Shown piece by piece: positions 3,867 through 44,237 of a stretch of 52,291 nt of DNA (position 1 is the first letter of the stretch; every line of letters starts with the position of its first letter). Origin of the DNA: an uncultured virus (IMG/VR IMGVR_UViG_2061766007_002057) (taxonomy: Duplodnaviria > Heunggongvirae > Uroviricota > Caudoviricetes); IMG/VR virus record IMGVR_UViG_2061766007_002057; one strand, given 5' to 3'. Under the pieces are notes generated by a model. The model had not been told where the DNA came from. It searched no databases and worked only from the letters and a program-made list of their open reading frames with translations. A program made the position numbers and the translations under genes.

Positions 3867-6666
3867 AATACATCTCCTTCACTTTGCTTAATGTCGAGCA
3901 ACGCTTTAAGGCGTTCCTCTTCCAAATTTATTTTATGTAACTTTTCCGTCTTACACTGCGGGCAATATTTATGCTCTCCTGCTAAATATCCATGAACTGG
4001 ACAGACGGAAAAGGTTGGTGTAATCGAAATATATGGTATTTCGTAGTTGTTGAAAATTGTCTTAACAAGCTGCTTTACTGCGTTAATGTCCGTAACACGC
4101 TCACCCAAATAAAGATGCTGAACTGACCCGCCTGTGTAAAGTGCGTTTATTGCCGACTGATTATCCATCATTTCAAAGATATCATCGGTATAGTTAACTG
4201 GTAACTGAGTGGAGTTAGTGTAGAACGGGGCAGCCCCTTCCTTTTCCACAGTTTCATTATCAGCCACGATGATGTCTGGATACTTCTTTTTGTCGATCTT
4301 TGCAAGACGGAAGCTACAATTATGTACTAAGACCCCCTGGTCACCACCAACAAAATAGTTGTGCATCCCTTCTACTTCAAGGTTGTACACAGGAGCTGTA
4401 TAAGAAAGTGCCTCAACGCTCTCTACAATGTGGTTTGCTTGCAAAATACCGAGTTTAGTTAATCGTCCCTTTACAATAGAATAAGTACATCCGTTACCAA
4501 TTGTTTTTGCAATTTCACTAAGTTTAAGTCCTTGTTCGTAGAGCCGTACAATTTCGTCTGTGTTAATGTTATGCTTATATTTGGAACACTGTTCTGGAGT
4601 ACGTGCTTTAGCCATTTCACTATAACGCTTGCGCATTTCTGGAGACTTAACCATCTCAACAAACCGTTTCAATTTCTTTGGATCAGAAGCTTTTTTACGT
4701 AATACTGCTTTTGTTGCATCACTATGGTGCATGCCATAAAAATGGTTTCTTTCACCAGTTCCAACTAAAAACGTTTCAGGACGTTCCTTATGGTTTATAC
4801 GAAGATGCATGGCTTTATGCTCGGCTTGCGTTAATACCAAAAGGTTTTCTGGTCTATTGTTGCTTTTATTAAAATCCTTATGATGAATAACGTACCCTTC
4901 TTTTAGCTCACCATTAAAGCACTCACTAACAATATGATGTTGCCATTGGCGTGAGTTATGTAATTTATAGCTAAGTTTATTATCATCTTTAAAGGTTATA
5001 TAATCAGATTTTATGCGATTACCAGCACGTAATAATCCAGCTGGAACCCACATAACCCCTTCTACTTTCTTACCGGTTTCCATATTAAATACACGAACAC
5101 CTATTGGGTGATTAGGTGTGCAGACCAAGGTTTGCCCATTAGTAAAAGTAACTTTCACTAGTTTAGCAGCCTTGCTTGTTTGCTTACAGGAAAGCATTTT
5201 ACGTAAACGAACTTTACTAGCCTCCTCATCCCAGCAATAAACGTACACATCATTTTTACCGACAAGGTCCTTTACTTGTACATTGCCTTCCAAAGTCTGC
5301 ACCTCAGTATTGCCTACTATACATGACTCAGCGGGCGACTGCTCTATATTATACTGATGCCCAGTTTCTTTTTGAAACTCAATTGCTTTTTTCTGCAAAT
5401 AGTTCATTACTTTTATAGCAAAAGTACGACCACGTTCGTCACCAATCCCATAGCCAAACATATTTAAGACACATTCATTCATACCAAGAGTAGCAATTGT
5501 GGAAAAGTGATTGGTCCAGTATTCCTTAAAACGGGCATGCGTTTTACGTAAGTAGAATTGAATGGTAGGGAACATGCCGCGTTCCGTCCAATCCTCTACA
5601 AATTTGCGCCTAATTTCCAACGCCTGCTTTGCTAAACCCAATACTTCATCAAGCTCTTTGAAGAACCCATCCTCGTCGTTCTTATGCAGATAACCTAAAC
5701 GTGGAAAGTTAATGGTGCATACTGAAACAGAGCCGGTTAATGGATTAGCACCAAACAACCCACCTTTGCGTTTTAGCTCGTCTAACCTCACCCGGAGCCT
5801 GCAGCACATACTCATTGCGTCGGCCGGGTCTAAGTCAGAAGCAATATAGTTACAGAAGTATGGTTGCCCATACNNNNNNNNNNNNNNNNNNNNNCATCAA
5901 AACGCGGATTGTTCCAGTCAAAATCCTTTGTAATGTTTACGGTAGGGATTGGGAAGGAGAAAATACGACCTTCTGCATCTCCCACATTCATAACCTCAAA
6001 GAAGCACTCATTAAATAAATCCATCTCCTTCTGAAACTCTTTGTAGGTTTTAGCCATCCGTTTCCCGCCTACTAATGCTGGCTTCTCAGCCATGTGTTTT
6101 GGCACAACAAAATCCAATGTACAATTCGAAAATGGGGTTTGCTCACCGACACGTGTTGGGACATTTAAGTTAAAAATAAACTCTTGTACTGCTTGTTTAA
6201 CTTCATCTTTACTTAAGTTATCATAATAAATAAACGGAGCCATCAATGTATCCAAGTTTGACACGGCGATAGCGCCTGCGCAGTCATTTGTTGCACTGTA
6301 AATTAAGTTAACTAATTGACCTAGCGCTGCACGTAAATGTTTAGGCGCGCTAGAACGTACTTTTCCAGGACCAGCATAGAACCCAACCTCTAATAAGTCC
6401 TCCAGGTCTAAGCCCATACAGTACCCCGACAGGGAACCGGAATCATGCAGATGGAATCTCCCATCTACGTGAGCATCTTTACATTGCTTCGGGTACACAT
6501 AATTCATCCAGTAGTATTTAGATACTTCTTCCCGGATATAATTGTTCAATCCCTGCAGTGAATATGCCATGTTTGCATTTTCATTAACACGCCAGTCTGA
6601 CTGACTAACATAGTCCTCTACTAAATTCTTTGCTACAATCTCCATTGGATTTCGTTCTTCGCTCAT
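3863..6666 (-). CDS. nrdD: anaerobic (class III) ribonucleoside-triphosphate reductase large chain, no ATP cone, intein-containing
   Basis: DWRVNENAN, HLHD, GYC, FSFPIPT, YGQPYFCNY, SMCCRL, TGSVSVCTIN, PAES, YTNST, YTGGSVQH, CPVHGY..CPQC. The two track ORFs join across the 5874-5894 gap. Confidence 0.95.
4319..5323 (-). mobile_element. 335-aa intein with HNH/NUMOD3-type endonuclease in nrdD
   Basis: PAES|CIVGNTEV start; CTPNHP block B; HHKDFNKSNNRPENL (HNH); GERNHFYGMHHS (NUMOD3-like); ends VYNLEVEGMHNYFV..VLVHN|C. Confidence 0.92.
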
Positions 6667-11666: not shown

Positions 11667-11839
11667 TTAAATTCCCCTGGGAATTGGAAAAGTTGGAAAA
11701 ATTGGGGCGTTATTTTTAAGCGATGTGGCGCTAATTCCTGCTAGGGTTTGCGGTCGTTTTTTGCTTTTTATTTAGCAAAATATAGCAGATTTACTATATA
11801 TAGTGTAAGGGGAAAATAAAAAGCCCTTTGCACTATTTA

Positions 11840-11891
11840 ATATAGTATAGTTTATTTTGCTTTTTGCATAGCAAAATAAAAACAATATACT
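11840..11891 (+). promoter_or_regulatory. 50-bp repeated element copy A: palindrome overlapping a probable early promoter
   Basis: TTTATTTTGCT-TTTTGCAT-AGCAAAATAAA palindrome; TTGCAT-16 bp-TATACT; 11840-11889 is identical to 12101-12150. Confidence 0.6.
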
Positions 11892-11938
11892 AATGATAGT
11901 GTAAAAAGACTACACTATATAGTTAAAAGGAGAACACT

Positions 11939-12034
11939 ATGAAAAAATTTATTGAAGCGTATGGTGGAGACATACTCTTCCTAACTATGTGGAGTATCCT
12001 AATTATAGGATACTTCGGCGGATTGATGAAGTAA
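11939..12034 (+). CDS. 31-aa hydrophobic peptide
   Basis: AAGGAG RBS; MKKFIEAYGGDILFLTMWSILIIGYFGGLMK. Confidence 0.6.
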   Translation: MKKFIEAYGGDILFLTMWSILIIGYFGGLMK

Positions 12035-12100
12035 AATTACGGGGTGGGATANNNNNNNNNNGGGAAACCTTACACTATCAGTATATAGGATAATACCTAT

Positions 12101-12150
12101 ATATAGTATAGTTTATTTTGCTTTTTGCATAGCAAAATAAAAACAATATA
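12101..12150 (+). repeat. 50-bp repeated element copy B (runs into an N-gap)
   Basis: Identical to 11840-11889. Confidence 0.8.
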
Positions 12151-12593
12151 NNNNNNNNNNNNNNNNNNNNNNNNNNNNNNNNNNNNNNNNNNNNNNNNNN
12201 NNNNNNNNNNNNNNNNNNNNNNNNNNNNNNNNNNNNNNNNNNNNNNNNNNNNNNNNNNNNNNNNNNNNNNNNNNNNNNNNNNNNNNNNNNNNNNNNNNNN
12301 NNNNNNNNNNNNNNNNNNNNNNNNNNNNNNNNNNNNNNNNNNNNNNNNNNNNNNNNNNNNNNNNNNNNNNNNNNNNNNNNNNNNNNNNNNNNNNNNNNNN
12401 NNNNNNNNNNNNNNNNNNNNNNNNNNNNNNNNNNNNNNNNNNNNNNNNNNNNNNNNNNNNNNNNNNNNNNNNNNNNNNNNNNNNNNNNNNNNNNNNNNNN
12501 NNNNNNNNNNNNNNNNNNNNNNNNNNNNNNNNNNNNNNNNNNNNNNNNNNNNNNNNNNNNNNNNNNNNNNNNNNNNNNNNNNNNNNNNNNNNN

Positions 12594-13032
12594 TTGGCTG
12601 CAATTAAAAATGTTGGAAAGGGGACTTTCCACACCGTAGAATATAGCAGTTCCCCCAAGCAGAAATGCTTGGCGGAGTTTGCTCTCCGCAAGGTGAGCCG
12701 GTTTCAGGTCCAGTTCGCGGACTATGAAAACAAGTCGGCGGTCAAGGAATACCGCGCCGAGACGGGGGTTGCTGCCAACAACCCCGCAGTACAGAACGAA
12801 GTGGAAGTTGCGGGCTNNNNNNNNNNNNNNNNNNNNNNCCCTCAAATTGAGGGTACCGCTGAAAAATTGCGGGTCGCTCAGTGTAAAATATTACACCGGC
12901 GACCGCGAAATCAGCAAAGAGGAGTATGAACAAATTTACTCCTCTCGGTGTAAGTTACCGCAATCCGCCCCGTCCAAGACGGGAGTGGAGTTCAGAAGTG
13001 TTATGCTGGAAAAGATTACGGAGTTCCGCTAG
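12594..13032 (+). CDS. hypothetical protein (start in gap; two fragments joined)
   Basis: 12594..12929 and 12724..13032 frames switch at an N-gap. Confidence 0.65.
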
Positions 13033-13044
13033 TCTTTCATCTTT

Positions 13045-13074
13045 CCCGCCCGCGCTTGGAGGGGCGCGGGCGGG
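13045..13074 (+). other. 11-bp GC hairpin after a stop codon, no U-tract
   Basis: CCCGCCCGCGC/GCGCGGGCGGG. Confidence 0.7.
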
Positions 13075-13126
13075 GTACGCTTCAAGCCCTTTGCAAAGAG
13101 GGCTTAAAGGGTACTAGGAGGTACTT

Positions 13127-13291
13127 ATGATAAAAATCATTTTAGAAAGAATTTTCATTGGCTCAGTAATTTTACTGGGCTTGCTTATGTGGGCCATCTG
13201 GGTCCACCAAAACGACTTAATGGTCCAACATTGTATGGACCATATTACTGAGTGCGAAGCTCAGTATTACTCCAACCACCAAAGGGGGTGA
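13127..13291 (+). CDS. 54-aa membrane peptide
   Basis: AGGAGG RBS; MIKIILERIFIGSVILLGLLMWAIWVHQ... Confidence 0.7.
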   Translation: MIKIILERIFIGSVILLGLLMWAIWVHQNDLMVQHCMDHITECEAQYYSNHQRG

Positions 13292-13658: not shown

Positions 13659-14105
13659 ATGAAAAAGGTATGGGTAGTTGGAAGTACTATACTTAACGAA
13701 CTGGAGGTAATGAATATGAAAATTGAGCCGTTTATTGGAAGTGCGCTACGCAAAAAGGCGTTTGAATACACGGAACAATTTTCTGACGAAAGCGTTATTG
13801 CTTTCAAGGAGTTGTTTATGCAAAAAATGGAATGCCTGCTGGCAGACCATCAGGTCTACCCGCAGCTTCGTGCGGAACTGGCAACAATGAAAGACGACTT
13901 CTTCAATGCTGTAACTCTTACCGCCAAGAAAGGGAACGATACAATTAAGGTGTCTTTTCCAAATAAGAAGTACGCCGAGTATATGCTTGGCGTCGGCGTT
14001 CTTAACAGACGCGGTGCCTACAATGTGGCAGAGGCGCGGGACTTTCTTAATATTATCCACCCGCGTCACGAAATTGACGCGCTGATGTACTTAAATTGTA
14101 AATAG
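13659..14105 (+). CDS. hypothetical protein (alternative start at 13716)
   Basis: Two in-frame GGAGG-ATG sites. Confidence 0.65.
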   Translation: MKKVWVVGSTILNELEVMNMKIEPFIGSALRKKAFEYTEQFSDESVIAFKELFMQKMECLLADHQVYPQLRAELATMKDDFFNAVTLTAKKGNDTIKVSFPNKKYAEYMLGVGVLNRRGAYNVAEARDFLNIIHPRHEIDALMYLNCK

Positions 14106-14264
14106 TTTTGGTAGCCCCGCCGNNNNNNNNNNNNNNNNNNNNNNNNNNNNNNNNNNNNNNNGTTTCTTTTATGGACAACGAAGGTCTTGATGAGTTGAGA
14201 CGCAAGCCTGTCCAGCCGGATATGTTCCTGCTTGGTAACATTATTAAGTTTGAGGAGGAAGACA

Positions 14265-14885
14265 ATGGAGTGGGAAGACGCAATAAACGCCCTGCAAAAG
14301 TGCAGAAAATGCGGGTCAGATAATGTGTGCTATGACGAAAAATTATTCTTAGCACCTGAAAGATTTAATGGGGTGGTGCTAAAATATAAGGCGGTGTGTT
14401 TAGATTGTAATAACCACACCAAGTGGTATGAAAAAGAATCCCAAGCAACTAAGGCTTGGAACAAGGAGGCTCGTTCTATGAGTAAAGCAAAATCGTTTGA
14501 TGAATTAACTAGTCGTAACTGGTGCACCGGTCAGTACTACAAAGTCCTGCCTGGCTGCTTCTGCACCGATGGAGTCAAGGACTTCATTGAGTCCTTTGAC
14601 GCTGGCTGGGCAGTGACCGAGATGTTAATCTCACCCACACTGCTTATGTGTAAGTACGGACATTTCCCGTACATCAAGGTTGCCGACAATGATAAAGGGC
14701 AACGGATGGTTGAGTTCTACTATGGCAAAGTAGACGATATGGGTGAGGACGACAAGAACGAAAAAGCATTTAAGTCTGTTGAGGACTTATGTAAATGCTT
14801 ACCTGTTGGAACGCTTCGCTTTGAAGTTGGCTTCGGTGACCCCGAAGGCAAGACTCACATACTTGCTCTTATGAGCGAACATTAA
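14265..14885 (+). CDS. Lar (restriction-alleviation)-like zinc finger in frame with a DUF6876-like domain
   Basis: CRKCGS...VCLDC...ATKAWN, then YYK...CTDGVKDF...AGW; internal AAGGAGG-ATG at 14478. Confidence 0.55.
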   Translation: MEWEDAINALQKCRKCGSDNVCYDEKLFLAPERFNGVVLKYKAVCLDCNNHTKWYEKESQATKAWNKEARSMSKAKSFDELTSRNWCTGQYYKVLPGCFCTDGVKDFIESFDAGWAVTEMLISPTLLMCKYGHFPYIKVADNDKGQRMVEFYYGKVDDMGEDDKNEKAFKSVEDLCKCLPVGTLRFEVGFGDPEGKTHILALMSEH

Positions 14886-16478: not shown

Positions 16479-16895
16479 ATGACAGACAAAGAACAACAAG
16501 AAGTACTTAAAGAAGTGCTTCGCAGTGTAGGCAGAACGGACCTAATTAAACAAGTAGGTCGTGTTCCTGACTACGAAATCATAGACGAGATAAAAGATTT
16601 ACTTCCGCCGGAGCAACGGAAGCACGCCTATGAATATGTTGAAGCAGCGAAGGGTCGTAATAAGACGCGTGACCTTATAAAATATGTAAAGAGTTGTACC
16701 AAACCATCTATGCCTGACCAGTCCTTAATGATGGCTATGATGAAAGGGATACACCCTGCTACATATGCACATAACAAAACGCTTACTTTGACCGATAAAC
16801 TTAAGCTGCCTGTATGGGAATGCATCTATGCCCTTAACATAAAGGAGGATAAAAATGATAATAAAACCCGTAGACGTTCTCACAAAACAGATTGA
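16479..16895 (+). CDS. hypothetical protein
   Basis: AGGAGG RBS. Confidence 0.7.
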   Translation: MTDKEQQEVLKEVLRSVGRTDLIKQVGRVPDYEIIDEIKDLLPPEQRKHAYEYVEAAKGRNKTRDLIKYVKSCTKPSMPDQSLMMAMMKGIHPATYAHNKTLTLTDKLKLPVWECIYALNIKEDKNDNKTRRRSHKTD

Positions 16896-17259
16896 GAATT
16901 TTGGAAAGAAGTCCCCGAGATTGATTGATACTCTCGGGTTTATTAGTGAAAATGGGAGCCATCTGAATTTACAGATGGCTCACGTTCTTACTACGCTTAA
17001 CTACATACAGAAATGTAAAGCGACTAGTAAGGACAAAGTACGGGCGTATGAGTCAATACTGCAAGAGTTGGTTAATGTCTGTACTGACCTGTCCACTCTC
17101 GGAATGTTTTCGTCGAGCATGTTGATGTCTACCGTCACACACTTGGACGAAGCCTTAGAGATGTACAAGAGAAGTGACGCAGAGTCGTTCCAACACTTTG
17201 TGTGTGAACGCAGAGCCCGCTACCAACGTGGAGGTAAAAATAATGAAAACAATGACTAA
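16855..17259 (+). CDS. hypothetical protein
   Basis: AAGGAGG RBS. Confidence 0.7.
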   Translation: MIIKPVDVLTKQIENFGKKSPRLIDTLGFISENGSHLNLQMAHVLTTLNYIQKCKATSKDKVRAYESILQELVNVCTDLSTLGMFSSSMLMSTVTHLDEALEMYKRSDAESFQHFVCERRARYQRGGKNNENND

Positions 17260-17719
17260 CAAACAAAAGAAGTATGTGACGAAGGGAGCTGGGAAAGTAA
17301 TTTCTTTCTCGGCTAAAAGTAAAAATGAAGTTGACATGCTCGCATTCAAGAAGTTCCTTGAAGGTGCGCACAACATTATCAACAAGGAAATTGTTCATGT
17401 CGGCAATGAGTTACTGTTCTCCGGTGAGCCTGAGAAATACTACAAACTGAAGGTGTGCAAACGCATCCATACCAACGCGAAAAAGAATAATATTCGTGTT
17501 CCGGCTTGGGTTGCTAAGTATGCAGCACAAGGCCCATACAACGCAGTACGCAACCCGCTCAGACGCAGAGAGCAGAACGCAAGATATGCCGCCAAAAAGA
17601 AAGCAGCAATGCTTGCGACGACTACGAAGGTTGAAACGGTCAAGACAAAGAAGGTATCCTTCTTTACTCGTCTTGGCTTGGCAATGAAAGTCTTGTTTGG
17701 AGGTGATGCTAATGCTTAA
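17243..17719 (+). CDS. basic hypothetical protein
   Basis: GGAGG RBS before ATG 17243. Confidence 0.7.
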   Translation: MKTMTNKQKKYVTKGAGKVISFSAKSKNEVDMLAFKKFLEGAHNIINKEIVHVGNELLFSGEPEKYYKLKVCKRIHTNAKKNNIRVPAWVAKYAAQGPYNAVRNPLRRREQNARYAAKKKAAMLATTTKVETVKTKKVSFFTRLGLAMKVLFGGDANA

Positions 17720-18098
17720 TCTGTTCAAAGACAAAAATGAAGTTATCCGCCGTGCAATGGAGTTAACCAAGCAACGCGCCAGAATTGAGAAAGAGTTGAA
17801 AGTACTCAATTCCCAAGTGCTTACTTCTATGCGCGACCAGAAGCAAACCCGTGTTACGATTGATGGTCTTGGTTCGGTATCAATTCGTACCACCACAAAG
17901 AAAGTACTCAATAGCGACAAGCTGAGTGATATGCTTTCAAAGGACCCCGTGTTCTTTAAGGAGTATGTATCCTCTCTTTCCTCGCCCAAACAGAGTGCAC
18001 TTGAGAAGTACATCGGTACACCTCAGTACACCAAGTTGGTACAGAGTACAGAGAAGTCTGAATCCGTCGTGTTCAATCTGGACAAAGACGCAGAGTAG
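17712..18098 (+). CDS. hypothetical coiled-coil protein
   Basis: GGAGG RBS. Confidence 0.7.
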   Translation: MLNLFKDKNEVIRRAMELTKQRARIEKELKVLNSQVLTSMRDQKQTRVTIDGLGSVSIRTTTKKVLNSDKLSDMLSKDPVFFKEYVSSLSSPKQSALEKYIGTPQYTKLVQSTEKSESVVFNLDKDAE

Positions 18099-18166: not shown

Positions 18167-19456
18167 ATGGCTAAAAGCAATGCAGCTCAATTCAAAATCG
18201 ACAACGCAGTATTAAATCAGAACGAAGTTAGTTTGTTCCTGGACTCGGTAATCCGTCAAGATGGACACCCGATGCCCGTATGCTTATGCGGTAACCCTGG
18301 TATTGGTAAATCGCAAATCATTCAAGGCATCTGTGCCAAGTACGGTATTTCCTATGAAGCTGGTACATACCACGAAGTTCGTGCTTCCTTACTCGTTGAC
18401 TCGTCTGATGTGACTGGCTTGCCTGTGGTACAAAAGTTGGTGGGTCATAAGAAAGATGGTGAGTTAACAGAGTATGGGCATGTGACTAAGTACTCTATCC
18501 CTGATATGCTTCCTCTTGTAAAGTATGACGCAGACGGAAACGAAATCGTGGATACTCGTAAGCATGTTCTGTTCTTTGATGAAATTAACAGAAGTGCTGA
18601 CCCGTCAATTATGAATGCAATTTTCCAATTGACGACAGAGTTTCGTATCGGCGTACACAAGTTAGTACCCAATTGTATAATTCTCTTGGCTATCAACCCA
18701 GAGAATACGGGCTACGCAGTTAATGAAATGTGTCCGGCGCTGGTTAACAGAATCAACTTCCAGTACATGACTGCAGAAGTTCAGCCGTGGCTTGAGTATG
18801 CTCGTAGCAAGGGAGTTAATAAGACGATTATTGACTTCATTGATGCTAACCCAGATGAGCTTGCTCATGACGGTATCGTAACCTTGGAAGGTCAGGACAA
18901 ACGGTTCCCTACACCTCGTGCTTGGTTCAATGTGGACCGCTTGTTAAAGTCCTTGCACCTGTCGTATAACACTACCAGCAAGGCAGCGTTAAGTATCAAG
19001 TTAATTGCTGGTATCGTAGGTTGGGGAGCAGCTACGAAGTTTGTAGCGTTTGCTCGTACCGCAGTAGATGACAGACCGTTAACCGGCAAGGAAGTCTTGA
19101 AGTCCTACGCACTAGCCAAGGACATGCAAGACAAAGTAACCGCACTCAATGATATGGGTATGCGGTTGTACGATACCACCAAGACTACAACGACACTTAA
19201 CTCCTTGAAAGATGAGTTCAAGGCGCGTGGTACGAAAATCAAACCGGCAGAGTTAAAGAACATGCTCGCCTTCTTGAAAGACATTGCACCAGAGAATGCT
19301 CTGTCCTTCCAAGACTACCTGTTGAAAGAGGTAGACAAAGAGTTTAGTTCTTGGTTCTTTAACCAAGTGTTCGGTGACCCCGAATTACAGAAATGCTGGG
19401 AGTCGTTACAGAATGGTGTGAGCGATGCTGGTGTAGGTACTAATGACTTGCTGTAA
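18167..19456 (+). CDS. MoxR-like AAA+ ATPase
   Basis: Walker A GNPGIGKS, Walker B LFFDEINR, AINP, ALVNR, FPTPRAW. Confidence 0.9.
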   Translation: MAKSNAAQFKIDNAVLNQNEVSLFLDSVIRQDGHPMPVCLCGNPGIGKSQIIQGICAKYGISYEAGTYHEVRASLLVDSSDVTGLPVVQKLVGHKKDGELTEYGHVTKYSIPDMLPLVKYDADGNEIVDTRKHVLFFDEINRSADPSIMNAIFQLTTEFRIGVHKLVPNCIILLAINPENTGYAVNEMCPALVNRINFQYMTAEVQPWLEYARSKGVNKTIIDFIDANPDELAHDGIVTLEGQDKRFPTPRAWFNVDRLLKSLHLSYNTTSKAALSIKLIAGIVGWGAATKFVAFARTAVDDRPLTGKEVLKSYALAKDMQDKVTALNDMGMRLYDTTKTTTTLNSLKDEFKARGTKIKPAELKNMLAFLKDIAPENALSFQDYLLKEVDKEFSSWFFNQVFGDPELQKCWESLQNGVSDAGVGTNDLL

Positions 19457-19513: not shown

Positions 19514-21019
19514 ATGGAACAAGATATTAAAGAGCTTGCCAAACAAGCAGACAGTAGACTTAACAAGATTATCCTTGGCTTCTATGCGAAGCAAGAGTTC
19601 TGGACAATCCTTGCCAGTCAGTTCAAACGTGTTCCAGTTCGTGGTAAAGAGATACCGAAAGTGTTCACGCATATCACTGAGAAAGGCATTGAGTTGTTAT
19701 ACAATGTTGACTTCGTTCTGAAAGCAACGGATGCACAGTTAAGATACCATGTCCTACATGAGTGTCTGCACTTGATTTATAGACACGCATATAGGTTTGC
19801 GGTAAGCATGAATGTAGTAGATGTAGCAACTACAAAGAAAAAGGTTCCGACTACTGACCAGCCGGTTATGCCTTGTAAGTCATCTGATCTTGCTGCTGAC
19901 TTGATTGTTAACAGAGACTTATGCGAAATCTTGTCTCAGCATTCAGTAGACGAAGCAAAAGGTTTGCTGTGCAAGGACCTTAAGGCTCTTGGATATGAGG
20001 ATTATGATGGTGGTTATTATTACGGAGACCATAAATGCTTGCGTGATAAAGATTCAGAATCCTTAGAGCAAGAAATAATTGACTGCTATACAGAAGTGAT
20101 ACAGCCAAAAGGTGGTGGCATGTCAATGGCTTCCCAAGGTGGTGGCGGTCAAGGTGAAGGCGAAGGCGAAGGTCAAGGTGGTGGTGGCGACCAAGGCGAC
20201 CAAGACAACCAGAACGGCGGCGGTGAAGGTAAAGGTGATGGCGACGGCAATGGAAATGGCGGAGGCAGTCAGTCCAAAGTCAAAGGTAAAGAAGTTCACA
20301 GTCACCAAGCAGTAGATGTAAAGAATCCTTTACAGAAGCAATTAGGGCAGCACTTTGTAGAGGAAATGATTAAGAACGCAGTCAAGCAATCCGGCGGCAC
20401 TGGTCAAGGTAACATGCCGGCTGGTTTGAAAGATGAGCTTGAAGCGCTATGTAATCCACCTAAGAAAGACTGGCGTGCCTTGCTAGCAAATTATGTTAAT
20501 GCTAGTATTCCTGCTCAGTCAACAAAGACTTGGGCTAACTTGAACAGACGCTTTCCTTATCTGCTCAAAGGTAAAAAGAAACGCCGTGTACCTTTAATCG
20601 GATTGGTACAAGATACTTCCGGTTCAGTAAGTGATGCAGCAATAAGAGCCTTCTATCGTGAGATAGATAGTATCCGTAAGATTACAAAGACGGATATTGA
20701 ATTGGTACAGTGTGACGCAGATATTAGTGACACGCGTATCATCTCTTATAAAGAGAGACTTACTTGGGATGTCAATGGTCGGGGTGGTACAGAGTTCTTA
20801 CCGGCGTTGAAGTACTTTGACAAAGCAAAGAGACGGCCGGACGTGGTCGTGTTCTTTACAGACTTGGAAGTATGCGATAGCGATGTTCCCGATGAGCCTA
20901 GAGCGTACAATATTATCTGGGTGTCTGTAAACGAAAGACAAGCAGACCACTTCCGTGAGCTCGGTAAGTACGGAACATTTATCTACTTGGAAGTAGATGA
21001 CGCAGACGAAGGAGTGTGA
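19514..21019 (+). CDS. HExxH metallopeptidase-like plus VWA-domain protein (DUF2201-type MoxR partner)
   Basis: HECLH, Gly-rich linker, DTSGS MIDAS motif, GRGGTEF, FFTD. Confidence 0.88.
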   Translation: MEQDIKELAKQADSRLNKIILGFYAKQEFWTILASQFKRVPVRGKEIPKVFTHITEKGIELLYNVDFVLKATDAQLRYHVLHECLHLIYRHAYRFAVSMNVVDVATTKKKVPTTDQPVMPCKSSDLAADLIVNRDLCEILSQHSVDEAKGLLCKDLKALGYEDYDGGYYYGDHKCLRDKDSESLEQEIIDCYTEVIQPKGGGMSMASQGGGGQGEGEGEGQGGGGDQGDQDNQNGGGEGKGDGDGNGNGGGSQSKVKGKEVHSHQAVDVKNPLQKQLGQHFVEEMIKNAVKQSGGTGQGNMPAGLKDELEALCNPPKKDWRALLANYVNASIPAQSTKTWANLNRRFPYLLKGKKKRRVPLIGLVQDTSGSVSDAAIRAFYREIDSIRKITKTDIELVQCDADISDTRIISYKERLTWDVNGRGGTEFLPALKYFDKAKRRPDVVVFFTDLEVCDSDVPDEPRAYNIIWVSVNERQADHFRELGKYGTFIYLEVDDADEGV

Positions 21020-24295: not shown

Positions 24296-24305
24296 GGAGG
24301 TACAT

Positions 24306-24608
24306 ATGTATTACACTTCACAACTTATGTATTGGCTTCGGGCAATTAAGGCTGTGTTTCCAGATACATATAAAACAATTCCCGTGGAAGCACGTGTATT
24401 GTTTAGTCAAACCGATATGGCTTGTGGCTCAGTAGAAATAGGGGAAAATACCGGATATGAATTTCTACCTGGACATGACTACTTAGTGCTAAAGTTTGTC
24501 GCGGTGAATGAAATCGGTAATCCAGTTTCAGCTTACCCAAAGCATAAAGGTTTTGACCTAAGCGTGTTGCAAAAATGTTTTGTAGCTAAAATTAAGTGTC
24601 GTCGTTAG
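24306..24608 (+). CDS. hypothetical protein
   Basis: AAGGAGG RBS. Confidence 0.7.
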   Translation: MYYTSQLMYWLRAIKAVFPDTYKTIPVEARVLFSQTDMACGSVEIGENTGYEFLPGHDYLVLKFVAVNEIGNPVSAYPKHKGFDLSVLQKCFVAKIKCRR

Positions 24609-24617
24609 ACGGTGACT

Positions 24618-24646
24618 TGACAACGGGCTCCAAAATATGTACCCTA
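24618..24646 (+). promoter_or_regulatory. sigma70-like promoter preceding the structured non-coding locus
   Basis: TTGACA-17 bp-TACCCT. Confidence 0.5.
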
Positions 24647-24650
24647 AACG

Positions 24651-24909
24651 TAGTGAAGGGTTGAGGGTAACCGAAACCTGAGCGAGGCTTCAGGGTGCCA
24701 GGGCACAGCCCGTTGGCCCGGCCGGGTCCGGCCAAGCCTAGGTCTGTCCGAACTTAAATTATATAAAATAATAATATTAAGTTCTAGGCTATAGGTAAGC
24801 CCGCAGCGTCCCGAAGGGCTTTAGAGCGAGGACTTACCTCAAGGGAATCCCGACGGTCGTAAGCGATAGCGTGTCGGGTTCCCTTCACTAACGACCGTTT
24901 CGTTTTTTT
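24651..24909 (+). ncRNA. candidate ~255-nt structured RNA or ssDNA element
   Basis: Closing stem TAGTGAAGGG/CCCTTCACTA, several internal stems, and a weak hairpin plus T-run at the 3' end; no family recognised. Confidence 0.45.
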
Positions 24910-25004
24910 GGGGGAATTATGTCCAAATTTTGGACCACTCCAAACTGGCCCGGTCTGAACCCGCTGTTGTGTATACGCTATCGCTTACTACCATACACAA
25001 CAGC
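24841..25004. other. pair of oppositely oriented hairpins with a shared 18-nt loop GGT(C/A)GTAAGCGATAGCGT
   Basis: Loop 24855-24872 (+) and loop 24975-24992 (-) are 17/18 identical, on unrelated 12-13 bp stems. Confidence 0.85.
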
Positions 25005-25170
25005 ATAGAAGCATTAAACGTACAAAACAGCCGTAGTTTAATGCTTTTAGATACTCTACATATTTACGTTTCACTTAAACAACTTAACAACAACGACAAC
25101 GACTTACCATAGGCTATGGTAAGGCAGGAAATACACACCATTTCGCGGCCGCCCGCCGCGCGGAGGTACT

Positions 25171-25794
25171 ATGCGACATAAAATAAAAGAAGTAGATGAT
25201 ACTCTTTGTATTCCTACGGCCAGCTTGTTAGAGTTCTATCATAACTATGCTACAAGTAAAAATCAAAGACAAATTCTTTTCTCGGTTATTCGTAAACTTA
25301 GAGAAGCCTGCCTTAAGGGCAGGGTTATGCGCTGGGATATGCAACTGCAGTTAATCAAACAGAAAGAAACACAAGTAATTAGAGTGTACAACATAGTCGA
25401 TGGTAAGGTAAGTATAAATATCTTTACCAATGAGCCTGGCAAGGGAAAACTTTCTTTCCAAGGTATAGAGTGGCTTGTCCCGTTTAATCCTATTGAGGAC
25501 AGAGTTGGTGCCGCTTTTATCTCATGTACAGGAAGTCTGGTAAAATCAAGAAGCCTTATGCGTCAATGGTTTACTCCGACATTTTCTTACACGCCTATAA
25601 CAATTTGTTCTCAAAAATACAGAGATGGGTTCTTTATTCTTAACACTTGTTTTTTACAGAAAATATCGGCACACCTACTTAGACACTATACTTACTTCGC
25701 CGGTATAAAGAAAATCAAACTAATTTCAAAAGGAGGGAAATATGTCAAAACTAAAGTCAAACATAAAAGTGGATTACAAAAGACGGACCGTTAA
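25171..25794 (+). CDS. hypothetical protein
   Basis: GGAGG RBS. Confidence 0.7.
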   Translation: MRHKIKEVDDTLCIPTASLLEFYHNYATSKNQRQILFSVIRKLREACLKGRVMRWDMQLQLIKQKETQVIRVYNIVDGKVSINIFTNEPGKGKLSFQGIEWLVPFNPIEDRVGAAFISCTGSLVKSRSLMRQWFTPTFSYTPITICSQKYRDGFFILNTCFLQKISAHLLRHYTYFAGIKKIKLISKGGKYVKTKVKHKSGLQKTDR

Positions 25795-31671: not shown

Positions 31672-32139
31672 ATGAAAAATAATGAGATTTTACTGCTAAA
31701 ATATGTATATGCCCTAACTTGTTGTGCATTGGGAAGATATATAGCTATGTCAGATTTCATAGAGGCAATGGGACTAGGGCTTATCTGTACAAGCGACTTT
31801 GCAGAATCTATAGGATTTAAGAATACAACACTCACCTATTGTATAACAAATTCCTATAGAACTGTCTATATATACTCTACCATGGATTCTATATCTGTCC
31901 AGGTCCGGCCAGGCGCAATTCTTTGTAATGATTCTTATATAGGTATGGGAAAAGATAAAACCGCTAACTCCTATTGGAATACTATAGCAAGTAAGTATAC
32001 ACAACCACTATATACTCTACTCTTAAATACTATTACTATGGATGTCCCTATCCTTTCCTTACCTATGCCTATCTTTAATAAGAAGTGTGAGTTTAGGGAA
32101 GAGAAGTATATAGGCCTGGCCAGGCCATACCACTTGTAA
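31672..32139 (+). CDS. hypothetical protein, paralog of 30614..31081
   Basis: GGAGG RBS; shared motifs. Confidence 0.8.
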   Translation: MKNNEILLLKYVYALTCCALGRYIAMSDFIEAMGLGLICTSDFAESIGFKNTTLTYCITNSYRTVYIYSTMDSISVQVRPGAILCNDSYIGMGKDKTANSYWNTIASKYTQPLYTLLLNTITMDVPILSLPMPIFNKKCEFREEKYIGLARPYHL

Positions 32140-32437
32140 GAGTGGTATGGNNNNNNNNNNNNNNNNNNNNNNNNNNNNNNNNNNNNNNNNNNNNNNNNNN
32201 NNNNNNNNNNNNNNNNNNNNNNNNNNNNNNNNNNNNNNNNNNNNNNNNNNNNNNNNNNNNNNNNNNNNNNNNNNNNNNNNNNNNNNNNNNNNNNNNNNNN
32301 NNNNNNNNNNNNNNNNNNNNNNNNNNNNNNNNNNNNNNNNNNNNNNNNNNNNNNNNNNNNNNNNNNNNNNNNNNNNNNNNNNNNNNNNNNNNNNNTATAT
32401 TTGTTATAAGATTTTAATATACAAGGGGGAAATAAAT

Positions 32438-33450
32438 ATGTCTTGTTTGGATAATAAAGAAATTAAGAAACTTATTGTTAAATTGTTATATAGTGCTTTT
32501 AATATATCGGGTAATGATGAGTTAAGATATGCTCCATTATCCTATATGGTTGATTTAGATGATAATGTTGCATTTCTTAGGGGTCCTTATTTAGATATTG
32601 CATNNNNNNNNNNNNNNNNNNNNNNNNNNNNAATGGGTTTATTATTGAAAGTTCTTTGTACTATACAAAAGTGTTTATATATTCAAATAAATATAGTGTA
32701 ATGCCTAACATTGTTAGAGTGATTGCCCATGTTAAATATGATGAGAACTTGAAATTGAGATTTCATAACCCAAAGTTTGAGTTGTTTAGGGAGCCGTTTA
32801 TTAAAAACNNNNNNNNNNNNNNNNNNNCAAAGAATCGTATGGTAGGACCAATAAGGAACTTGACAAACAAAACGCAAAGGAGTATTTTGGGTATGGAATT
32901 AACAAAAACAAATCTGGGAAAGCAGATGAAAAAGCAAATTAAGAACGAAGTTTTAAGTATGACCCATGCAGTTTTTGATGGTATGAAAGAAAAAGTCAAA
33001 GGTACGCAGAGATTAAAGAAAGCAGACCGTATTAAGATAGGGTCAATACTTTACAAAATGTTCTATACCGTACGTAACCTTGCCATGAGTTGTGAAAGGT
33101 GCGGCAGTATGGAAATGCGGCCTTTTCAATACGGCGCAGTTGAAATATGGAAAAACAAAGACGGAGCTATAACGGTATCTTGTTATGATTTTAACTTTGC
33201 GATAGGTAAAGGTGTAAGGGAAATAGATTACACTTTGAACACTACGGAAGATCATAGGGGTTATAGTGTAGTTGCTTCATACAATAAACTGTACGCTTCG
33301 GCATATAACCACCATATCATACATAAAGCAGTANNNNNNNNNNNNNNNNNNNNNNNNNNNNNNNNNNNNNNNNTTATTAAAGCCGATAAAGACAAGACGA
33401 TGCTACCTATGGGAAGAACTTACGGGGATATATGGAGAACAGCAGATTAA
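32438..33450 (+). CDS. one or two hypothetical proteins interrupted by three gaps
   Basis: AGGGGG RBS at ATG 32438; open frames between gaps. Confidence 0.5.
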
Positions 33451-33869
33451 ATAAAGAAGTTACTACTTTGCTTATACAGATAATGAGTGTTGTGCAAATG
33501 CTTATGGATGTTTTACGGAATAGCAGTACTGTTAAACCAATTCCGTTAAAGTCGAGTTTNNNNNNNNNNNNNNNNNNNNNNNNNNNNNNNNNNNNNNNNN
33601 NNNNNNNNNNNNNNNNNNNNNNNNNNNNNNNNNNNNNNNNNNNNNNNNNNNNNNNNNNNNNNNNNNNNNNNNNNNNNNNNNNNNNNNNNNNNNNNNNNNG
33701 GTAAGAACGACAAAAATATAGTATATGAAGTAGCAAGAAAAATAGTACTGCGTAAGGCAAGAAAGATACGCAAACTACTCGGCACACTTGACCCGCTTGA
33801 GGAAAAATATATTGATTTTTCTTATGCAGACGAGTGTTGCTTTTTACATTAGAAACAAGGGGATAATAT

Positions 33870-34324
33870 ATGAAAAACAATACAATAACTAAAACTAATA
33901 TAGTGAAACATATTATTAAGATCATTAAGTATGTTTGCACTTTTCATAACCTAAATACAAGAAGAAATGCTAAAAAGTATAATGGGACAGATACTATTAT
34001 ACAAGTACAAAACTCAGGGGATCTTTGGATAAGAGATGATTGGTACGGGGATGCCGAAATAGATGATGGTAATGGCAATAAAGAGTTACCTATCATCATA
34101 ACAAATAATAAATTGCGTATTGAGTTTGTAAGGGATGAAGTTGTGTTTAAGTTGTTTTACGGTAACGGCAAACCCGTCCTTACAGAACGTATATCAAGGG
34201 TGGATGTTGCTTATTTTAATAAAGCCCTTGTAAAGATAACTGCAAAGCATATAGTAAACGAAGTTAACAAGTTATATACAAACATAACAAAAAACTACAA
34301 AGATCCTACAAAGAAAATAGGGGA
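33870..34324 (+). CDS. hypothetical protein, 3' end in a large gap
   Basis: AGGGG RBS; open for about 150 codons. Confidence 0.6.
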
Positions 34325-35624
34325 NNNNNNNNNNNNNNNNNNNNNNNNNNNNNNNNNNNNNNNNNNNNNNNNNNNNNNNNNNNNNNNNNNNNNNNNNNNN
34401 NNNNNNNNNNNNNNNNNNNNNNNNNNNNNNNNNNNNNNNNNNNNNNNNNNNNNNNNNNNNNNNNNNNNNNNNNNNNNNNNNNNNNNNNNNNNNNNNNNNN
34501 NNNNNNNNNNNNNNNNNNNNNNNNNNNNNNNNNNNNNNNNNNNNNNNNNNNNNNNNNNNNNNNNNNNNNNNNNNNNNNNNNNNNNNNNNNNNNNNNNNNN
34601 NNNNNNNNNNNNNNNNNNNNNNNNNNNNNNNNNNNNNNNNNNNNNNNNNNNNNNNNNNNNNNNNNNNNNNNNNNNNNNNNNNNNNNNNNNNNNNNNNNNN
34701 NNNNNNNNNNNNNNNNNNNNNNNNNNNNNNNNNNNNNNNNNNNNNNNNNNNNNNNNNNNNNNNNNNNNNNNNNNNNNNNNNNNNNNNNNNNNNNNNNNNN
34801 NNNNNNNNNNNNNNNNNNNNNNNNNNNNNNNNNNNNNNNNNNNNNNNNNNNNNNNNNNNNNNNNNNNNNNNNNNNNNNNNNNNNNNNNNNNNNNNNNNNN
34901 NNNNNNNNNNNNNNNNNNNNNNNNNNNNNNNNNNNNNNNNNNNNNNNNNNNNNNNNNNNNNNNNNNNNNNNNNNNNNNNNNNNNNNNNNNNNNNNNNNNN
35001 NNNNNNNNNNNNNNNNNNNNNNNNNNNNNNNNNNNNNNNNNNNNNNNNNNNNNNNNNNNNNNNNNNNNNNNNNNNNNNNNNNNNNNNNNNNNNNNNNNNN
35101 NNNNNNNNNNNNNNNNNNNNNNNNNNNNNNNNNNNNNNNNNNNNNNNNNNNNNNNNNNNNNNNNNNNNNNNNNNNNNNNNNNNNNNNNNNNNNNNNNNNN
35201 NNNNNNNNNNNNNNNNNNNNNNNNNNNNNNNNNNNNNNNNNNNNNNNNNNNNNNNNNNNNNNNNNNNNAGGAATATTTGAAGAAAAACTACAAGGGCAGT
35301 ATACCGAGTGGGTTTTTTTGCTATACGTATGCAATACACAAAATACTGTTTCCTTTGTTTGGAACAATTGGGTTTCTTATTAAACGTATTGAGGGAGTGA
35401 ACGACAGCGGAAACTTGTATGGCATAATACCCTTGGAANNNNNNNNNNNNNNNNNGTGACTTATTCTAAAGACAATACACTCGTTGTCCAAAAAGTGAAA
35501 CTTGCCGTTGATTTACTGCCTGGAACGTTTACACTTGACAATCTTCCGTTAAGACATTTACTACAAATACTTATGTCGTTAAGAAAATATGTTAAGTCTT
35601 CGATAAAACAGGAGCTGAAAGTAT

Positions 35625-36077
35625 ATGGAGATAATAAACTACACTGGCGCACTCTTAAAATTGATAGAGGACGTCAAGGGTCGGTTAAATAATTTCTGGC
35701 TCGGAGTGGACGATAATATGTTACGAGAGCAGGACTTCATGGAGTACGTCTTNNNNNNNNNNNNNNNNNNNNNNNNNNNNNNNNNNNNNNNNNNNNNNNT
35801 AACAAGAGATTTTTACATTGTACTGCCAAAGAATACAAAAAGATTTTCAAAATACCGAAATGTTCGTGTTTACGTTTCAACCGGGTTTGCTTCGTGTAAC
35901 TCACTAAAGGAAGTTATTAACTTCAACGGGCATCATAATACACTTGTAGTTATTGATGAGAACGGAGTAAAAGAGATTTTTGATAAGTTGAGCAGATACG
36001 AACTTGGGCTTGTTTACTTGGACTTATTGAGGTCGCTTACTTACTTATTGCTTGGAGGTTTTTATGAAAGTAAATGA
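35625..36077 (+). CDS. hypothetical protein (paralog of 36557..37051)
   Basis: IVLPKNTKRFSKY/IELPANSKHLSQY and DLLRSLTY/DIIRSLYY shared. Confidence 0.7.
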   Translation: MEIINYTGALLKLIEDVKGRLNNFWLGVDDNMLREQDFMEYVXXXXXXXXXXXXXXXXXTRDFYIVLPKNTKRFSKYRNVRVYVSTGFASCNSLKEVINFNGHHNTLVVIDENGVKEIFDKLSRYELGLVYLDLLRSLTYLLLGGFYESK

Positions 36078-42035: not shown

Positions 42036-42401
42036 ATGCCAAAGAAAAGGATAAGCGAAACATTTACAAGCGATCTTAGACACAATTATACGGTGGTTTC
42101 ACTCGATGCTTTGCGAGACGACATTGAGGAGCATAANNNNNNNNNNNNNNNNNNNNNNNNNGTTTGGGATACATTACGAGAGATATATGAAATATATGAT
42201 GAGCATTATATCATAATGTATTTAATGTATTACCTAGGTATGTCATTTCGAAAAGCTGCAAACATTTTAGAGAGGGGACCTTCATTTGTGTTTCTGTATG
42301 CTAACACAGCAATACAGGCAGTTAAAGACAAGCTACAGGTACAAAATGATTGTAAGATAGAAGATGATTTTGAAGAACGAGAATCTGAGGAGTTACCTTG
42401 A
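42036..42401 (+). CDS. small sigma region-4-like HTH protein
   Basis: YYLGMSFRKAANILERGPSFV...AIQAVK pattern. Confidence 0.45.
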   Translation: MPKKRISETFTSDLRHNYTVVSLDALRDDIEEHXXXXXXXXXVWDTLREIYEIYDEHYIIMYLMYYLGMSFRKAANILERGPSFVFLYANTAIQAVKDKLQVQNDCKIEDDFEERESEELP

Positions 42402-43046
42402 CTTAAAGGGTTTTACAACGGATGACTTATTCAATGCGCATGCAGTTATAATGGACGACGATAAGTTTGTTTTATCAGACAGTGGGGAGTCCTGGCTTGA
42501 CGAGCAGGTAGCATTTGATGAAGAAAACGAAACCGCTGTAACAGCAAAAAATATATTAGAAAAGAAACAGGGTCAATATATACACGATTCNNNNNNNNNN
42601 NNNNNNNNNNNNNNNNNNNNNNNNNNNNNNNNNNNNNNNNNNNNNNNNNNNNNNNNNNNNNNNNNNNNNNNNNNNNNNNNNNNNNNNNNNNNNNNNNNNN
42701 NNNNNNNNGTTGTTTTGCAGCAGCGTCGAAAAAGAATTCTATTATTTTAACAGAAGGAGTATACGACACTATTGCTTTACAAAAATACGGATTTGTAAAT
42801 TCTGGTGCACTGCTCGGCACAAACTTATCTAATCTTCAATTTTTTCAGCTATTTTCGATAGTTGATAATATTGCTTTATGTTTAGATAACGACTCCGCCG
42901 GCAAAGAAGCAGTAAAAAAGATATACAATAACTATAAGAACAGTGTTACGTTCTACACAGTCGATATAGATAAAGACCCAGATGAGTTCTTAAAAGAACA
43001 TGGGCGAGATGAGTTTAAGAAAAGGATACGGAAAATAGATGCTTAG
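42364..43046 (+). CDS. dnaG: DnaG-type TOPRIM primase (joined across a gap; 3' half missing from the ORF track)
   Basis: Hand translation IILTEGVYDTIAL..GF..SGALLGT...LCLDNDSAGKEA...KDPDEFL. Confidence 0.85.
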
Positions 43047-43835: not shown

Positions 43836-44237
43836 ATGTTTGGAAGAAAAAATAAATACATTGTATTTTATGCAGAAGAAATAAACGGCTTTACAAAGGG
43901 AGAGATACTAACCAAAATTAAAGACAGTGAAGNNNNNNNNNNNNNNNNNNNNNNTTATGGAAAAGATTTTGTTGTTAGGTTAGAGGACGCAGTAGGTCCT
44001 TTTGAGTTCTTACAAGCTGTTGGCGTAATGCACGCATTAAATGTTAAGTGTGATGAAATACTTAAACTGCAAGAAGAAATTAAAAACCTTACCGCAAAAG
44101 TAGATAACATAGCATTGTCTCAGGCAACGCTATTAGCAGCAGTAAAATTGATTACAGAAAACAAACATGGAAAATCCAAAACTCACAATTGTGAATGCTC
44201 CGGACAATGCTCTGGAAATTGTAAACAGGGCCGCTAG
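43836..44237 (+). CDS. hypothetical protein with a Cys-rich tail
   Basis: AAGGAG RBS. Confidence 0.6.
   Translation: MFGRKNKYIVFYAEEINGFTKGEILTKIKDSEXXXXXXXXYGKDFVVRLEDAVGPFEFLQAVGVMHALNVKCDEILKLQEEIKNLTAKVDNIALSQATLLAAVKLITENKHGKSKTHNCECSGQCSGNCKQGR

Follow-up and report, generated by a model that had tools for sequence, protein, structure and literature searches.

What kind of element carries nearly the same loop twice, on opposite strands, in two hairpins whose stems are unrelated? We addressed this question in the 52,291-nucleotide (nt) DNA of an uncultured virus of the Caudoviricetes (IMG/VR record IMGVR_UViG_2061766007_002057; this whole stretch is called the window below), where two such hairpins sit in a 562-nt non-coding gap (24609-25170) flanked by + strand genes. 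A first-pass annotation of the sequence had read the pair as an origin of replication and had mentioned, as an alternative, that the two loops could pair on one RNA and act as a switch. The latter idea fits our results better, given the + strand context, variants that form G·U pairs, two folds of nearly equal energy, and complementary flanks and motif pairs that recur in some relatives; the pairing itself is what we infer. We tentatively propose, at slightly less than an even chance, that both hairpins belong to a single non-coding + strand RNA, ~400 nt long and highly structured. The two hairpins are:

24841-24885, + strand: hairpin 1, with arms 24841-24854 and 24873-24885 forming 13 Watson–Crick pairs and U24848 bulged.
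24963-25004, + strand: hairpin 2, with arms 24963-24974 and 24993-25004 forming 12 perfect pairs.

Both hairpins, with their 18-nt loops, were present as the first-pass annotation had described them. Loop 1 (24855-24872) reads GGTCGTAAGCGATAGCGT, and loop 2 (24975-24992) reads ACGCTATCGCTTACTACC on the + strand and GGTAGTAAGCGATAGCGT on the minus strand; together they form an 18-nt inverted repeat matching at 17/18 positions across 102 nt (120 nt from centre to centre). The stems of the two hairpins have no sequence in common, and the repeat stops precisely at both loop edges, the loops being equal in length. When the 562-nt gap was shuffled 1000 times with dinucleotides preserved, the best 18-nt inverted repeat reached 16/18 in three shuffles and 17/18 in none, which bears out the observation of matching loops on opposite strands in unrelated stems. 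As RNA, hairpin 1 folds at −22.9 kcal/mol (z −4.0) and hairpin 2 at −14.9 kcal/mol (z −4.2); as DNA, the energies on either strand lie between −9.9 and −13.9 kcal/mol. No further copy of the degenerate 18-mer was found elsewhere in the window at zero to two mismatches. The single site with three mismatches, a 15/18 near-copy of loop 1 on the + strand (GGAAGTATGCGATAGCGA, 20866-20883), lies within a 501-aa (amino acid) VWA-like gene and is complementary to loop 2; 0.05 such sites were expected at that threshold, and the near-copy could be a chance match or a second target.

The duplex formed by the two loops was calculated at −26.9 kcal/mol. In the 175-nt fragment 24836-25010, the minimum was a long helix, extended by pairing of 24873-79 with 24957-64 (−59.8 kcal/mol), compared with −52.0 kcal/mol for the two-hairpin fold, a value from an enforced register that underrates this fold. 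For the putative transcript 24646-25060 the order was reversed, the minimum being the two-hairpin fold (−156.9 vs −154.0 kcal/mol for the long helix), leaving the two folds within ~3 kcal/mol of each other. Energies this close make a conformational switch possible, as well as a double-stranded processing stem round the core. Programs limited to nested structures cannot score a kiss between intact hairpins. Since kissing hairpins rarely exceed 6–8 base pairs (bp) in the simulations described in the accessible part of PMC10798244, complementarity over all 18 nt is easier to explain if an extended duplex forms.

In the model we favor, to which we give a chance not far below even, the loops of one + strand RNA pair first as a kiss and then as a ~20-bp helix that closes a conserved module lying between the hairpins. 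The RNA would begin a few bases after 24645 and run at least to the terminal hairpin at 25006-25053, either as a separate transcript or as a long leader of the gene at 25171. Hairpin 1 would fold while it is being transcribed, and once hairpin 2 had been synthesized, the loops would touch as a kissing pair. A pure kiss could not accommodate 18 bases, so the contact would spread by strand exchange into a long helix of 17/18 pairs plus a G·U and a U-A pair, with the module (24903-24945) closed at its tip. Such a switch might control how the core RNA is processed, whether the terminal hairpin is read through, or how the AAC-rich leader and the Shine–Dalgarno sequence of the downstream gene are used.

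The gap begins after a 100-aa open reading frame (ORF; stop codon 24606-24608) and ends at the ATG (25171) of a 207-aa ORF, which is preceded by GGAGGT. Besides hairpins 1 and 2, the following elements lie along it:

24617-24645, + strand: promoter-like block TTGACA-N17-TACCCT, directly 3′ of the stop codon of the 100-aa ORF.
24646-24716, + strand: conserved 5′ domain, made up of AAACGTAGTGA, a hairpin (24658-24679), GAGCGAGGCTT and the hairpin GGGC-ACA-GCCC (24701-24711).
24750-24784, + strand: A+T-rich hairpin, GAACTTAA ... TTAAGTTC.
24793-24839, + strand: hairpin with the tip CCCGAAGGG at 24810-24818.
24885-24909, + strand: TCACTAACGACCGT followed by the run TTTCGTTTTTTT, containing an AACGAC motif.
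24903-24945, + strand: central conserved module, consisting of a T-run, a G-run, a hairpin GTCC-loop-GGAC and CCA.
25006-25053, + strand: A/U-rich terminal hairpin of 14 pairs with a 16-nt loop, followed by TTTT; terminator-like (inverted repeat I5).
25078-25101, + strand: AAC-repeat tract, AACAAC TT AACAAC AACGAC AACGAC.
25103-25123, + strand: 10-pair hairpin (inverted repeat I11).
~25141-25160, + strand: G+C-rich hairpin, followed by GGAGGT (25162-25167) and the ATG of the 207-aa ORF.

The gap as a whole folds far more stably than its shuffles (z −5.2 for the + strand and −5.0 for the minus strand). The exact pattern of the promoter-like block occurs once in the window, and the terminal hairpin (−15.4 kcal/mol) includes one G·U pair that can form on the + strand only. 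Genes on the + strand, a promoter-like block and a terminator-like hairpin fit an RNA switch better than an origin. A second pairing is available to loop 1: 24885-24898 can pair with 24853-24866, which takes in the two bases of the 5′ arm next to the loop and the loop's own 5′ portion (inverted repeat I9, 12/14), bringing GGTCGT at the start of loop 1 together with ACGACC 3′ of hairpin 1. This alternative adjoins the T-run and, when enforced, folds at −13.7 kcal/mol, weaker than hairpin 1 at −22.9 kcal/mol. Covariance models of Rfam run against 24300-25500 with expect values (E) of up to 10 gave three matches of 15–17 bits, all far under their thresholds, and a scan of the window for transfer and transfer-messenger RNAs gave none.

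Several other candidates in the gap were considered and set aside. A 29-codon ORF (24919-25008) stands behind the G-run (GGGGG, 4 nt, ATG), crosses hairpin 2 and stops at the start of the terminal hairpin; it was rejected as a conserved gene, the relatives described below having frames of two or three codons or unrelated ones and both strain variants being nonsynonymous. A helix of 24621-29 with 24707-15 appeared compensated between the window and one relative (L116) and proved to be broken in two others (L115 and L118) and by the change G24625T in a near-identical strain (X6), in which a pairing of the 5′ arm of hairpin 2 with the loop of the terminal hairpin (I15, 10/11), tried as a conserved alternative, is also largely lost. 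A role of hairpin 1 as an anti-terminator of the T-run was likewise set aside: pairing with loop 2 creates no terminator, and the T-run belongs to the conserved module.

We then asked which parts of this architecture are kept in other genomes. GenBank phages gave no match at the DNA level and none to the 207-aa protein, and the GP88 protein encoded further downstream had distant homologues only. Searches of IMG/VR with the 207-aa protein, the 501-aa protein, the 18-mer loop, the central motif and a 22-nt loop shared by two relatives (see below) yielded no relative; alignment of the ATPase encoded at 18167-19456 detected IMG/VR relatives at 22–33% identity only. Metagenomes contained ATPase homologues with 87–40% identity. 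An alignment of 23 of these homologues retrieved 39 metagenome loci, of which four include the syntenic non-coding gap, at lengths of 660–1500 nt (a further locus, L117, ends short of this region):

L116: ATPase identity 87%, gap ~16760-17436.
L115: ATPase identity 86%, gap ~13735-14401.
L118: ATPase identity 62%, gap ~17270-18056.
L122: ATPase identity 50%, gap 11744-13252.

None of the four has a tblastn match to the 207-aa protein, and GP88 is kept in L115, L116 and L118, not in L122. The promoter-like block recurs in all four relatives as TTGAC(A/T)-N17-TACC(A/C)T right after the upstream stop codon (TTGATT in L115), and the promoter scan called it in L116 and L118 at 9/12. A covariance model of this block plus the 5′ domain (R1) gave scores of 90–108 bits for the window, L115, L116 and L118; for L122 the score was 21.6 bits (E 0.096). 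The stems of the 5′-domain hairpins differ among the genomes with pairing retained, and the second hairpin covaries (GGGC/GCCC, GUGC/GCAC and UUUGC/GCAAA). The central module can be aligned in all five genomes; its 4-pair stem covaries as GUCC/GGAC, GCCC/GGGC and GCCU/AGGC, and an 18-nt core is identical across L115, L116 and L118. These three genomes have in common with the window the 5′ domain, the A+T-rich segment at the same position, a hairpin tip of the C-GAA-G type (CCCGAAGGG in L118, CCCGAATGGG in L116 and GGGCGAAGCCC in L115), an A/U-rich terminal hairpin (whose loop contains AACGAC in the three relatives) and an AAC-repeat tract at the matching place. All relatives have a G+C-rich hairpin and a Shine–Dalgarno sequence before the downstream gene, and they carry other hairpins before and after the core, with loops of 3–26 nt; the first stem bases of hairpin 2, GCTGTT, are also found in a hairpin of L115 (14156-14184).

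Three further observations were made. Minus-strand promoter-like sites scoring 10/12 lie in the A+T-rich segment of L115 (13863-13835) and L116 (16922-16893), facing the 5′ domain, and no counterpart was called in the window. Downstream of its core (12470-13250), L122 carries no fewer than 11 hairpin units in tandem, each with a perfect stem and a loop of its own set between conserved flanks (~TGC(A/T)TTTGC ... CATAA(A)TT); since its variable parts are palindromic, the array does not resemble CRISPR. The central motif had 17 matches in species genomes (11 of them in Streptomyces), which we took as chance; the one inspected, in a Lachnospiraceae metagenome-assembled genome (L168), lay in a coding-looking stretch.

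Complementarity between the two flanks of the central module was also found beyond the window. Without gaps, it reached 17/18 in the window and 13/14 in L115 (0/500 shuffles as good in either case) and a marginal 12/14 in L116 (35/500 shuffles); with gaps allowed, the flank duplex gave z scores of −2.9 to −4.4 in 4/4 genomes tested. In the four gaps, the + strand carries GTCGTT 6 times (0.6 expected), AACGAC 10 times (0.7 expected) and AACAAC 12 times (0.9 expected), an enrichment that was noticed first and tested afterwards. GTCGTT and AACGAC repeatedly fall in hairpin loops, as in L116, which has UCGUCGUU in a loop before the core and AACGACGA in the loop of the terminal hairpin. L122 lacks both motifs and has instead one upstream GGTTGTT and three downstream copies of AACAACC, meaning that both sides have changed.

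The first-pass annotation had argued that selection acts on structure plus loop, and a pair of relatives upheld this view. A hairpin of L116 (16928-16979) has the loop GCGGAGTGGTCGTTTACGGAGC, which is 21/22 identical to a loop in a hairpin of L122 (12338-12376); the two copies are on opposite strands, in unrelated stems, and in genomes whose ATPases were put at ~50% identity to that of the window (87% for L116 and 50% for L122 in the detailed comparison). The L116 copy (+ strand) precedes the core and the L122 copy (minus strand) comes after it, like hairpins 1 and 2 of the window. Loop 1 has GGTCGT and AGCGT in common with this 22-nt loop (~60% by a hand count, which alignment A5 places differently). 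The shared loop also contains two GGAG (or CUCC) motifs. A 14-mer core of the 18-nt loop occurs at no fewer than 114 IMG/VR loci, none of the matches listed having the extended loop; in one unrelated viral contig (L094), the 14-nt core lies inside a 12-pair stem that includes G·U pairs, which is probably a chance event among >114 matches.

Near-identical strains were compared over 24560-25230 using contigs from four sequencing runs (X3, X6, X7 and X8). One 39-kb X6 contig covers the whole interval and differs from the window by 24 substitutions and 5 indel events (strains ~96% alike). The indels, four 1-nt deletions and one 2-nt insertion, all fall in the gap, which argues against coding. No difference was found in 24741-24940 or 24951-25021, and both hairpins, their loops and the core are thus invariant; with 25 events in the 562-nt gap, ~3.9 were expected in the 87 nt of the hairpins (Poisson P ~0.02). 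Hairpin 1 was unchanged in X3, X6 and X8, and hairpin 2 in X3, X6 and X7. The hairpin at 24658-24679 is kept in X6 despite U24679C (G·U to G-C), A24675G (U-A to U·G) and a deletion at 24669, which is in its loop, and all four X6 changes in the terminal hairpin (deletions at 25022 and 25034, changes at 25025 and 25030) are in the loop. The wobble pairs of these two hairpins are possible on the + strand only.

Besides the order in which the motif enrichment was noticed and tested, a number of points weigh against a loop-pairing + strand RNA. The 18-mer, whose conservation in related phages had been suggested as a check, is kept in none of the four relatives and is absent from IMG/VR, as is the exact two-hairpin layout from L115, L116, L118 and L122; a search of JGI metagenomes for the paired-loop pattern gave no match. 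No compensatory changes were seen in the two loops among relatives and strains, ungapped flank complementarity was not above shuffles in L118 and L122, and that of L116 may simply reflect the duplication of a hairpin. Within the L116 and L122 loci, no copy of the 22-nt loop in the opposite orientation was found at up to 6 edits. The consensus promoter scan did not call the block at 24617-24645 in the window, where the −10 hexamer TACCCT matches at 3/6, nor that of L115, and the terminator scan called no + strand terminator, the loop of the terminal hairpin exceeding 8 nt. Transcription of the stretch, the ends of the RNA, the contact between the loops and the target of the switch all enter the model as inferred steps. 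Hairpins that tolerate G·T pairs on one strand are as compatible with single-stranded DNA as with RNA, and the loops contain GCGATAGC, a stable DNA mini-hairpin motif of the GCGNNAGC type, beside a hairpin with the tip CCGAAGG.

A broader proposal, doubtful but in our view worth stating, is that the gap encodes one member of an undescribed family of large modular RNAs (~0.4 to >1 kb) in large phages of the cattle and goat gut. Such RNAs would combine a promoter-proximal block, a core of G-run plus hairpin and a changing set of hairpins that meet through the loop motifs GYYGUU and AACRRC, with loop cassettes placed in either orientation in unrelated stems; in the window, one of these contacts would have grown into an 18-nt strand-exchange switch that opens and closes the core. 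The evidence for this proposal and for the loop-pairing model is comparative and thermodynamic only and draws on a small set of five genomes and a few strains. These five genomes (the window, L115, L116, L118 and L122) and the strain variants supply concrete helices and motif pairs. If the loop-pairing model is right, the locus would provide a natural same-strand, long-range loop–loop contact that can be converted into a long helix, and the kinetic design of plasmid antisense control would operate within a single phage RNA. It would also add a structured RNA family without an Rfam match (L115, L116 and L118 gave no match at gathering score) in large uncultured rumen phages, next to genes almost none of which have an assigned function.

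The explanation that survives best among the others, although we regard it as unlikely, places the signal in single-stranded DNA. Each unwound strand would fold a hairpin showing the same 18-nt loop, from which a primase or polymerase would start synthesis both ways. In a variant, the origin would be primed by transcription through a promoter, an A+T-rich unwinding element and an R-loop; R-loop origins of the T4 or ColE1 kind combine a promoter with an A+T-rich unwinding element. The same loop on opposite strands in unrelated stems fits this explanation, as do DNA hairpins stable at the energies given above, a large non-coding region with an A+T-rich segment (24750-24784) and short motifs repeated in both orientations, and a 22-nt loop that lies upstream of the module in L116 (+ strand) and downstream of it in L122 (minus strand), the geometry seen in the window. 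Each of these relatives, however, has the shared loop in a single orientation, and the other hairpins of the region have G·U pairs that form on the + strand only. Extrusion of cruciforms from duplex DNA, moreover, is strongly disfavored by 18-nt loops. Mini-hairpin motifs such as GCGNNAGC are found at the G4 origin, ssiA, N4 promoters and priming sites, according to the accessible text of PMC13037366; being short, they are likely to match by chance.

The first-pass annotation had based its origin on likenesses to ssoA and RSF1010. It is correct that both loops end in TAGCGT, the CS-6 hexamer of ssoA single-strand origins (24867-24872 on the + strand and 24975-24980 on the minus strand). However, we give this little weight, since the window has 11 copies of the hexamer where 21 would be expected, and RSB, the companion element of CS-6 in ssoA, had no window match at up to 3 mismatches in the version tested, that of pSELNU1 as printed in the part of PMC4598088 available to us. 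A primase had been placed at 42364..43046, an interval that turned out to contain eight in-frame stop codons; the ORF it does contain (42364-42750) matched nothing in PHROGs or Pfam. Scans of window ORFs (65 against PHROGs and 50 against Pfam) detected neither a primase nor a rolling-circle Rep family, and the suggested likeness to the paired ssi sites of RSF1010 failed on this count and on sequence, those sites being alike over 40 nt and the present ones in their loops only. The cumulative GC skew reaches its minimum at ~10–12 kb, at the switch in gene orientation, and climbs steadily from there with no turn at 24.8 kb. With RSB absent, TAGCGT not enriched, no primase or Rep, this skew and an 18-mer that is not kept, a phage origin priming both strands found no support. 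Were the signal nonetheless one of single-stranded DNA, it would indicate where replication begins in a phage group that has no known start site.

Two RNAs rather than one would also bring the loops together, in trans, one acting as regulator and the other as target or sponge, an arrangement that we judge decidedly unlikely. The upstream RNA would end after hairpin 1 at the T-run (24899-24909), and hairpin 2 and the terminal hairpin would be carried by a second, small RNA whose start lies within the central module or 3′ of it. The nearest parallels would be the same-strand CI RNA of P4 and the c4 RNA of P1. The T-run does lie 13 nt 3′ of hairpin 1 with a weak 5-pair hairpin directly before it; it is nevertheless part of the conserved module, and no hairpin is found consistently just before it in the relatives. 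Hairpin 2 followed by the terminal hairpin is organized like a small RNA, with a weak match to tsr25 (16 bits, far below threshold), but the promoter scan found no + strand promoter-like site between the two hairpins. That L116 and L122 have a single loop orientation each, as if the partner were encoded elsewhere, and that a gene of the window contains the near-copy of loop 1 at 20866-20883 would both suit this arrangement.

We give little credence to a recent accident, in which a template switch or small inverted duplication copied the loop and left an undecayed match with no function of its own. The 18-mer is indeed restricted to the present lineage and its copies are one mismatch apart. An accident does not readily account for a repeat that ends exactly at the boundaries of two loops of equal length, for hairpins that are invariant where the rest of the gap varies by ~4%, for related loops in unrelated stems in L116 and L122, or for complementary flanks in L115 as well. 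Very improbable, finally, is a duplex DNA site, in which an asymmetric 18-bp inverted pair is bound by a DNA-looping regulator or by a recombinase that inverts the 102-bp segment: an inverted repeat conserved among strains does flank a short segment, but inversion would break both hairpins, the enclosed module is conserved in relatives without the repeat, a duplex site gives no reason for copies exactly in the loops of their own perfect palindromes, no recombinase family was found among the window ORFs scanned with PHROGs and Pfam, and the contigs of the four runs, which can drop rare forms, contained no inverted form or joint.

The surrounding genome is that of a large phage, with ORFs running on the + strand throughout from ~13.5 kb onward. 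Recognizable genes in the window encode endonuclease V, a MoxR-like ATPase with its VWA partner, an IrrE-like peptidase, GP88, a RuvB-like protein, a PD-(D/E)XK nuclease, ThyA, GroEL and peptide deformylase; the majority of the scanned ORFs have no family match. Public runs containing the stretch are labelled as gut metagenomes of cattle or goats (18 entries in 10 studies, of which two may be the source). Some features of the window stand apart from the gap. The anaerobic ribonucleotide reductase NrdD (3863-6666, minus strand) is divided between ORFs of 278 and 650 aa, the latter with an HNH endonuclease domain in the middle of the protein, which suggests an intein or intron insertion. A 208-aa ORF (44167-44793) matches only the middle of the thymidylate synthase profile (positions 384-586 of 866), and this gene may be split or differently fused. 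A sharp low-G+C island (32000-36000; 0.18–0.25 vs ~0.4 in the surrounding DNA) contains a 529-aa ORF that matches no PHROG or Pfam family.

Several known systems resemble parts of the one-RNA model. RNase III processing stalks flank ribosomal RNAs, and RNase III sites are found in T7 early messenger RNA. The likeness lies in distant flanks that form a ~20-bp helix enclosing a conserved RNA, the flanks varying and the core being kept. The predicted helix of the window differs in that it competes with two local hairpins, and signs of a flank helix came from the window and L115, with L116 marginal and L118 and L122 negative. In the CI RNA of P4 (seqB against seqA and seqC) and the c4 RNA of P1 and P7, regulator and target reportedly lie in the same orientation on one transcript and pair after processing. 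The window has no sequence or Rfam match to these RNAs.

With RSF1010 ssiA and ssiB, the window has in common two hairpin signals close together on complementary strands. According to the accessible text of PMC8567376, those sites are highly similar 40-nt repeats with a hairpin at nt 7–27, the six bases at the 5′ end being bound by RepB′; in the window the match is confined to the 18-nt loops, and neither a RepB′-like primase nor an iteron-binding initiator was found in the scanned ORFs. The likeness to ssoA consists of TAGCGT in a hairpin loop. The window differs from ssoA, as far as the latter is described in the available part of PMC4598088, in having no RSB, no Rep/dso context and short hairpins instead of one long imperfect palindrome.

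The closest logic may be that of CopA/CopT of R1 and RNA I/RNA II of ColE1, which also present complementary sequences in the loops of stable hairpins. For CopA/CopT, the accessible part of PMC10798244 describes a loop–loop kiss that comes first and an extended complex that forms as the stems yield. The partners in both plasmid systems come from opposite strands of one locus and are complementary in stems as well as loops, whereas the hairpins of the window are on the same strand, 120 nt apart, with unrelated stems and loops of 18 nt instead of 6–7. By eye, one YUNR U-turn motif (CUUA) was found in loop 2 and none in loop 1, where ~1 per 18 nt is expected by chance. By analogy, the logic of the locus would be that of kissing-loop antisense control and of same-strand phage regulators such as the P4 CI RNA, although transcription from opposite strands, the defining feature of kissing-loop antisense control, does not apply to the hairpin pair. 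An RNA-like element outside the families of Rfam would, in this comparison, make use of an RNA–RNA contact of a known type.

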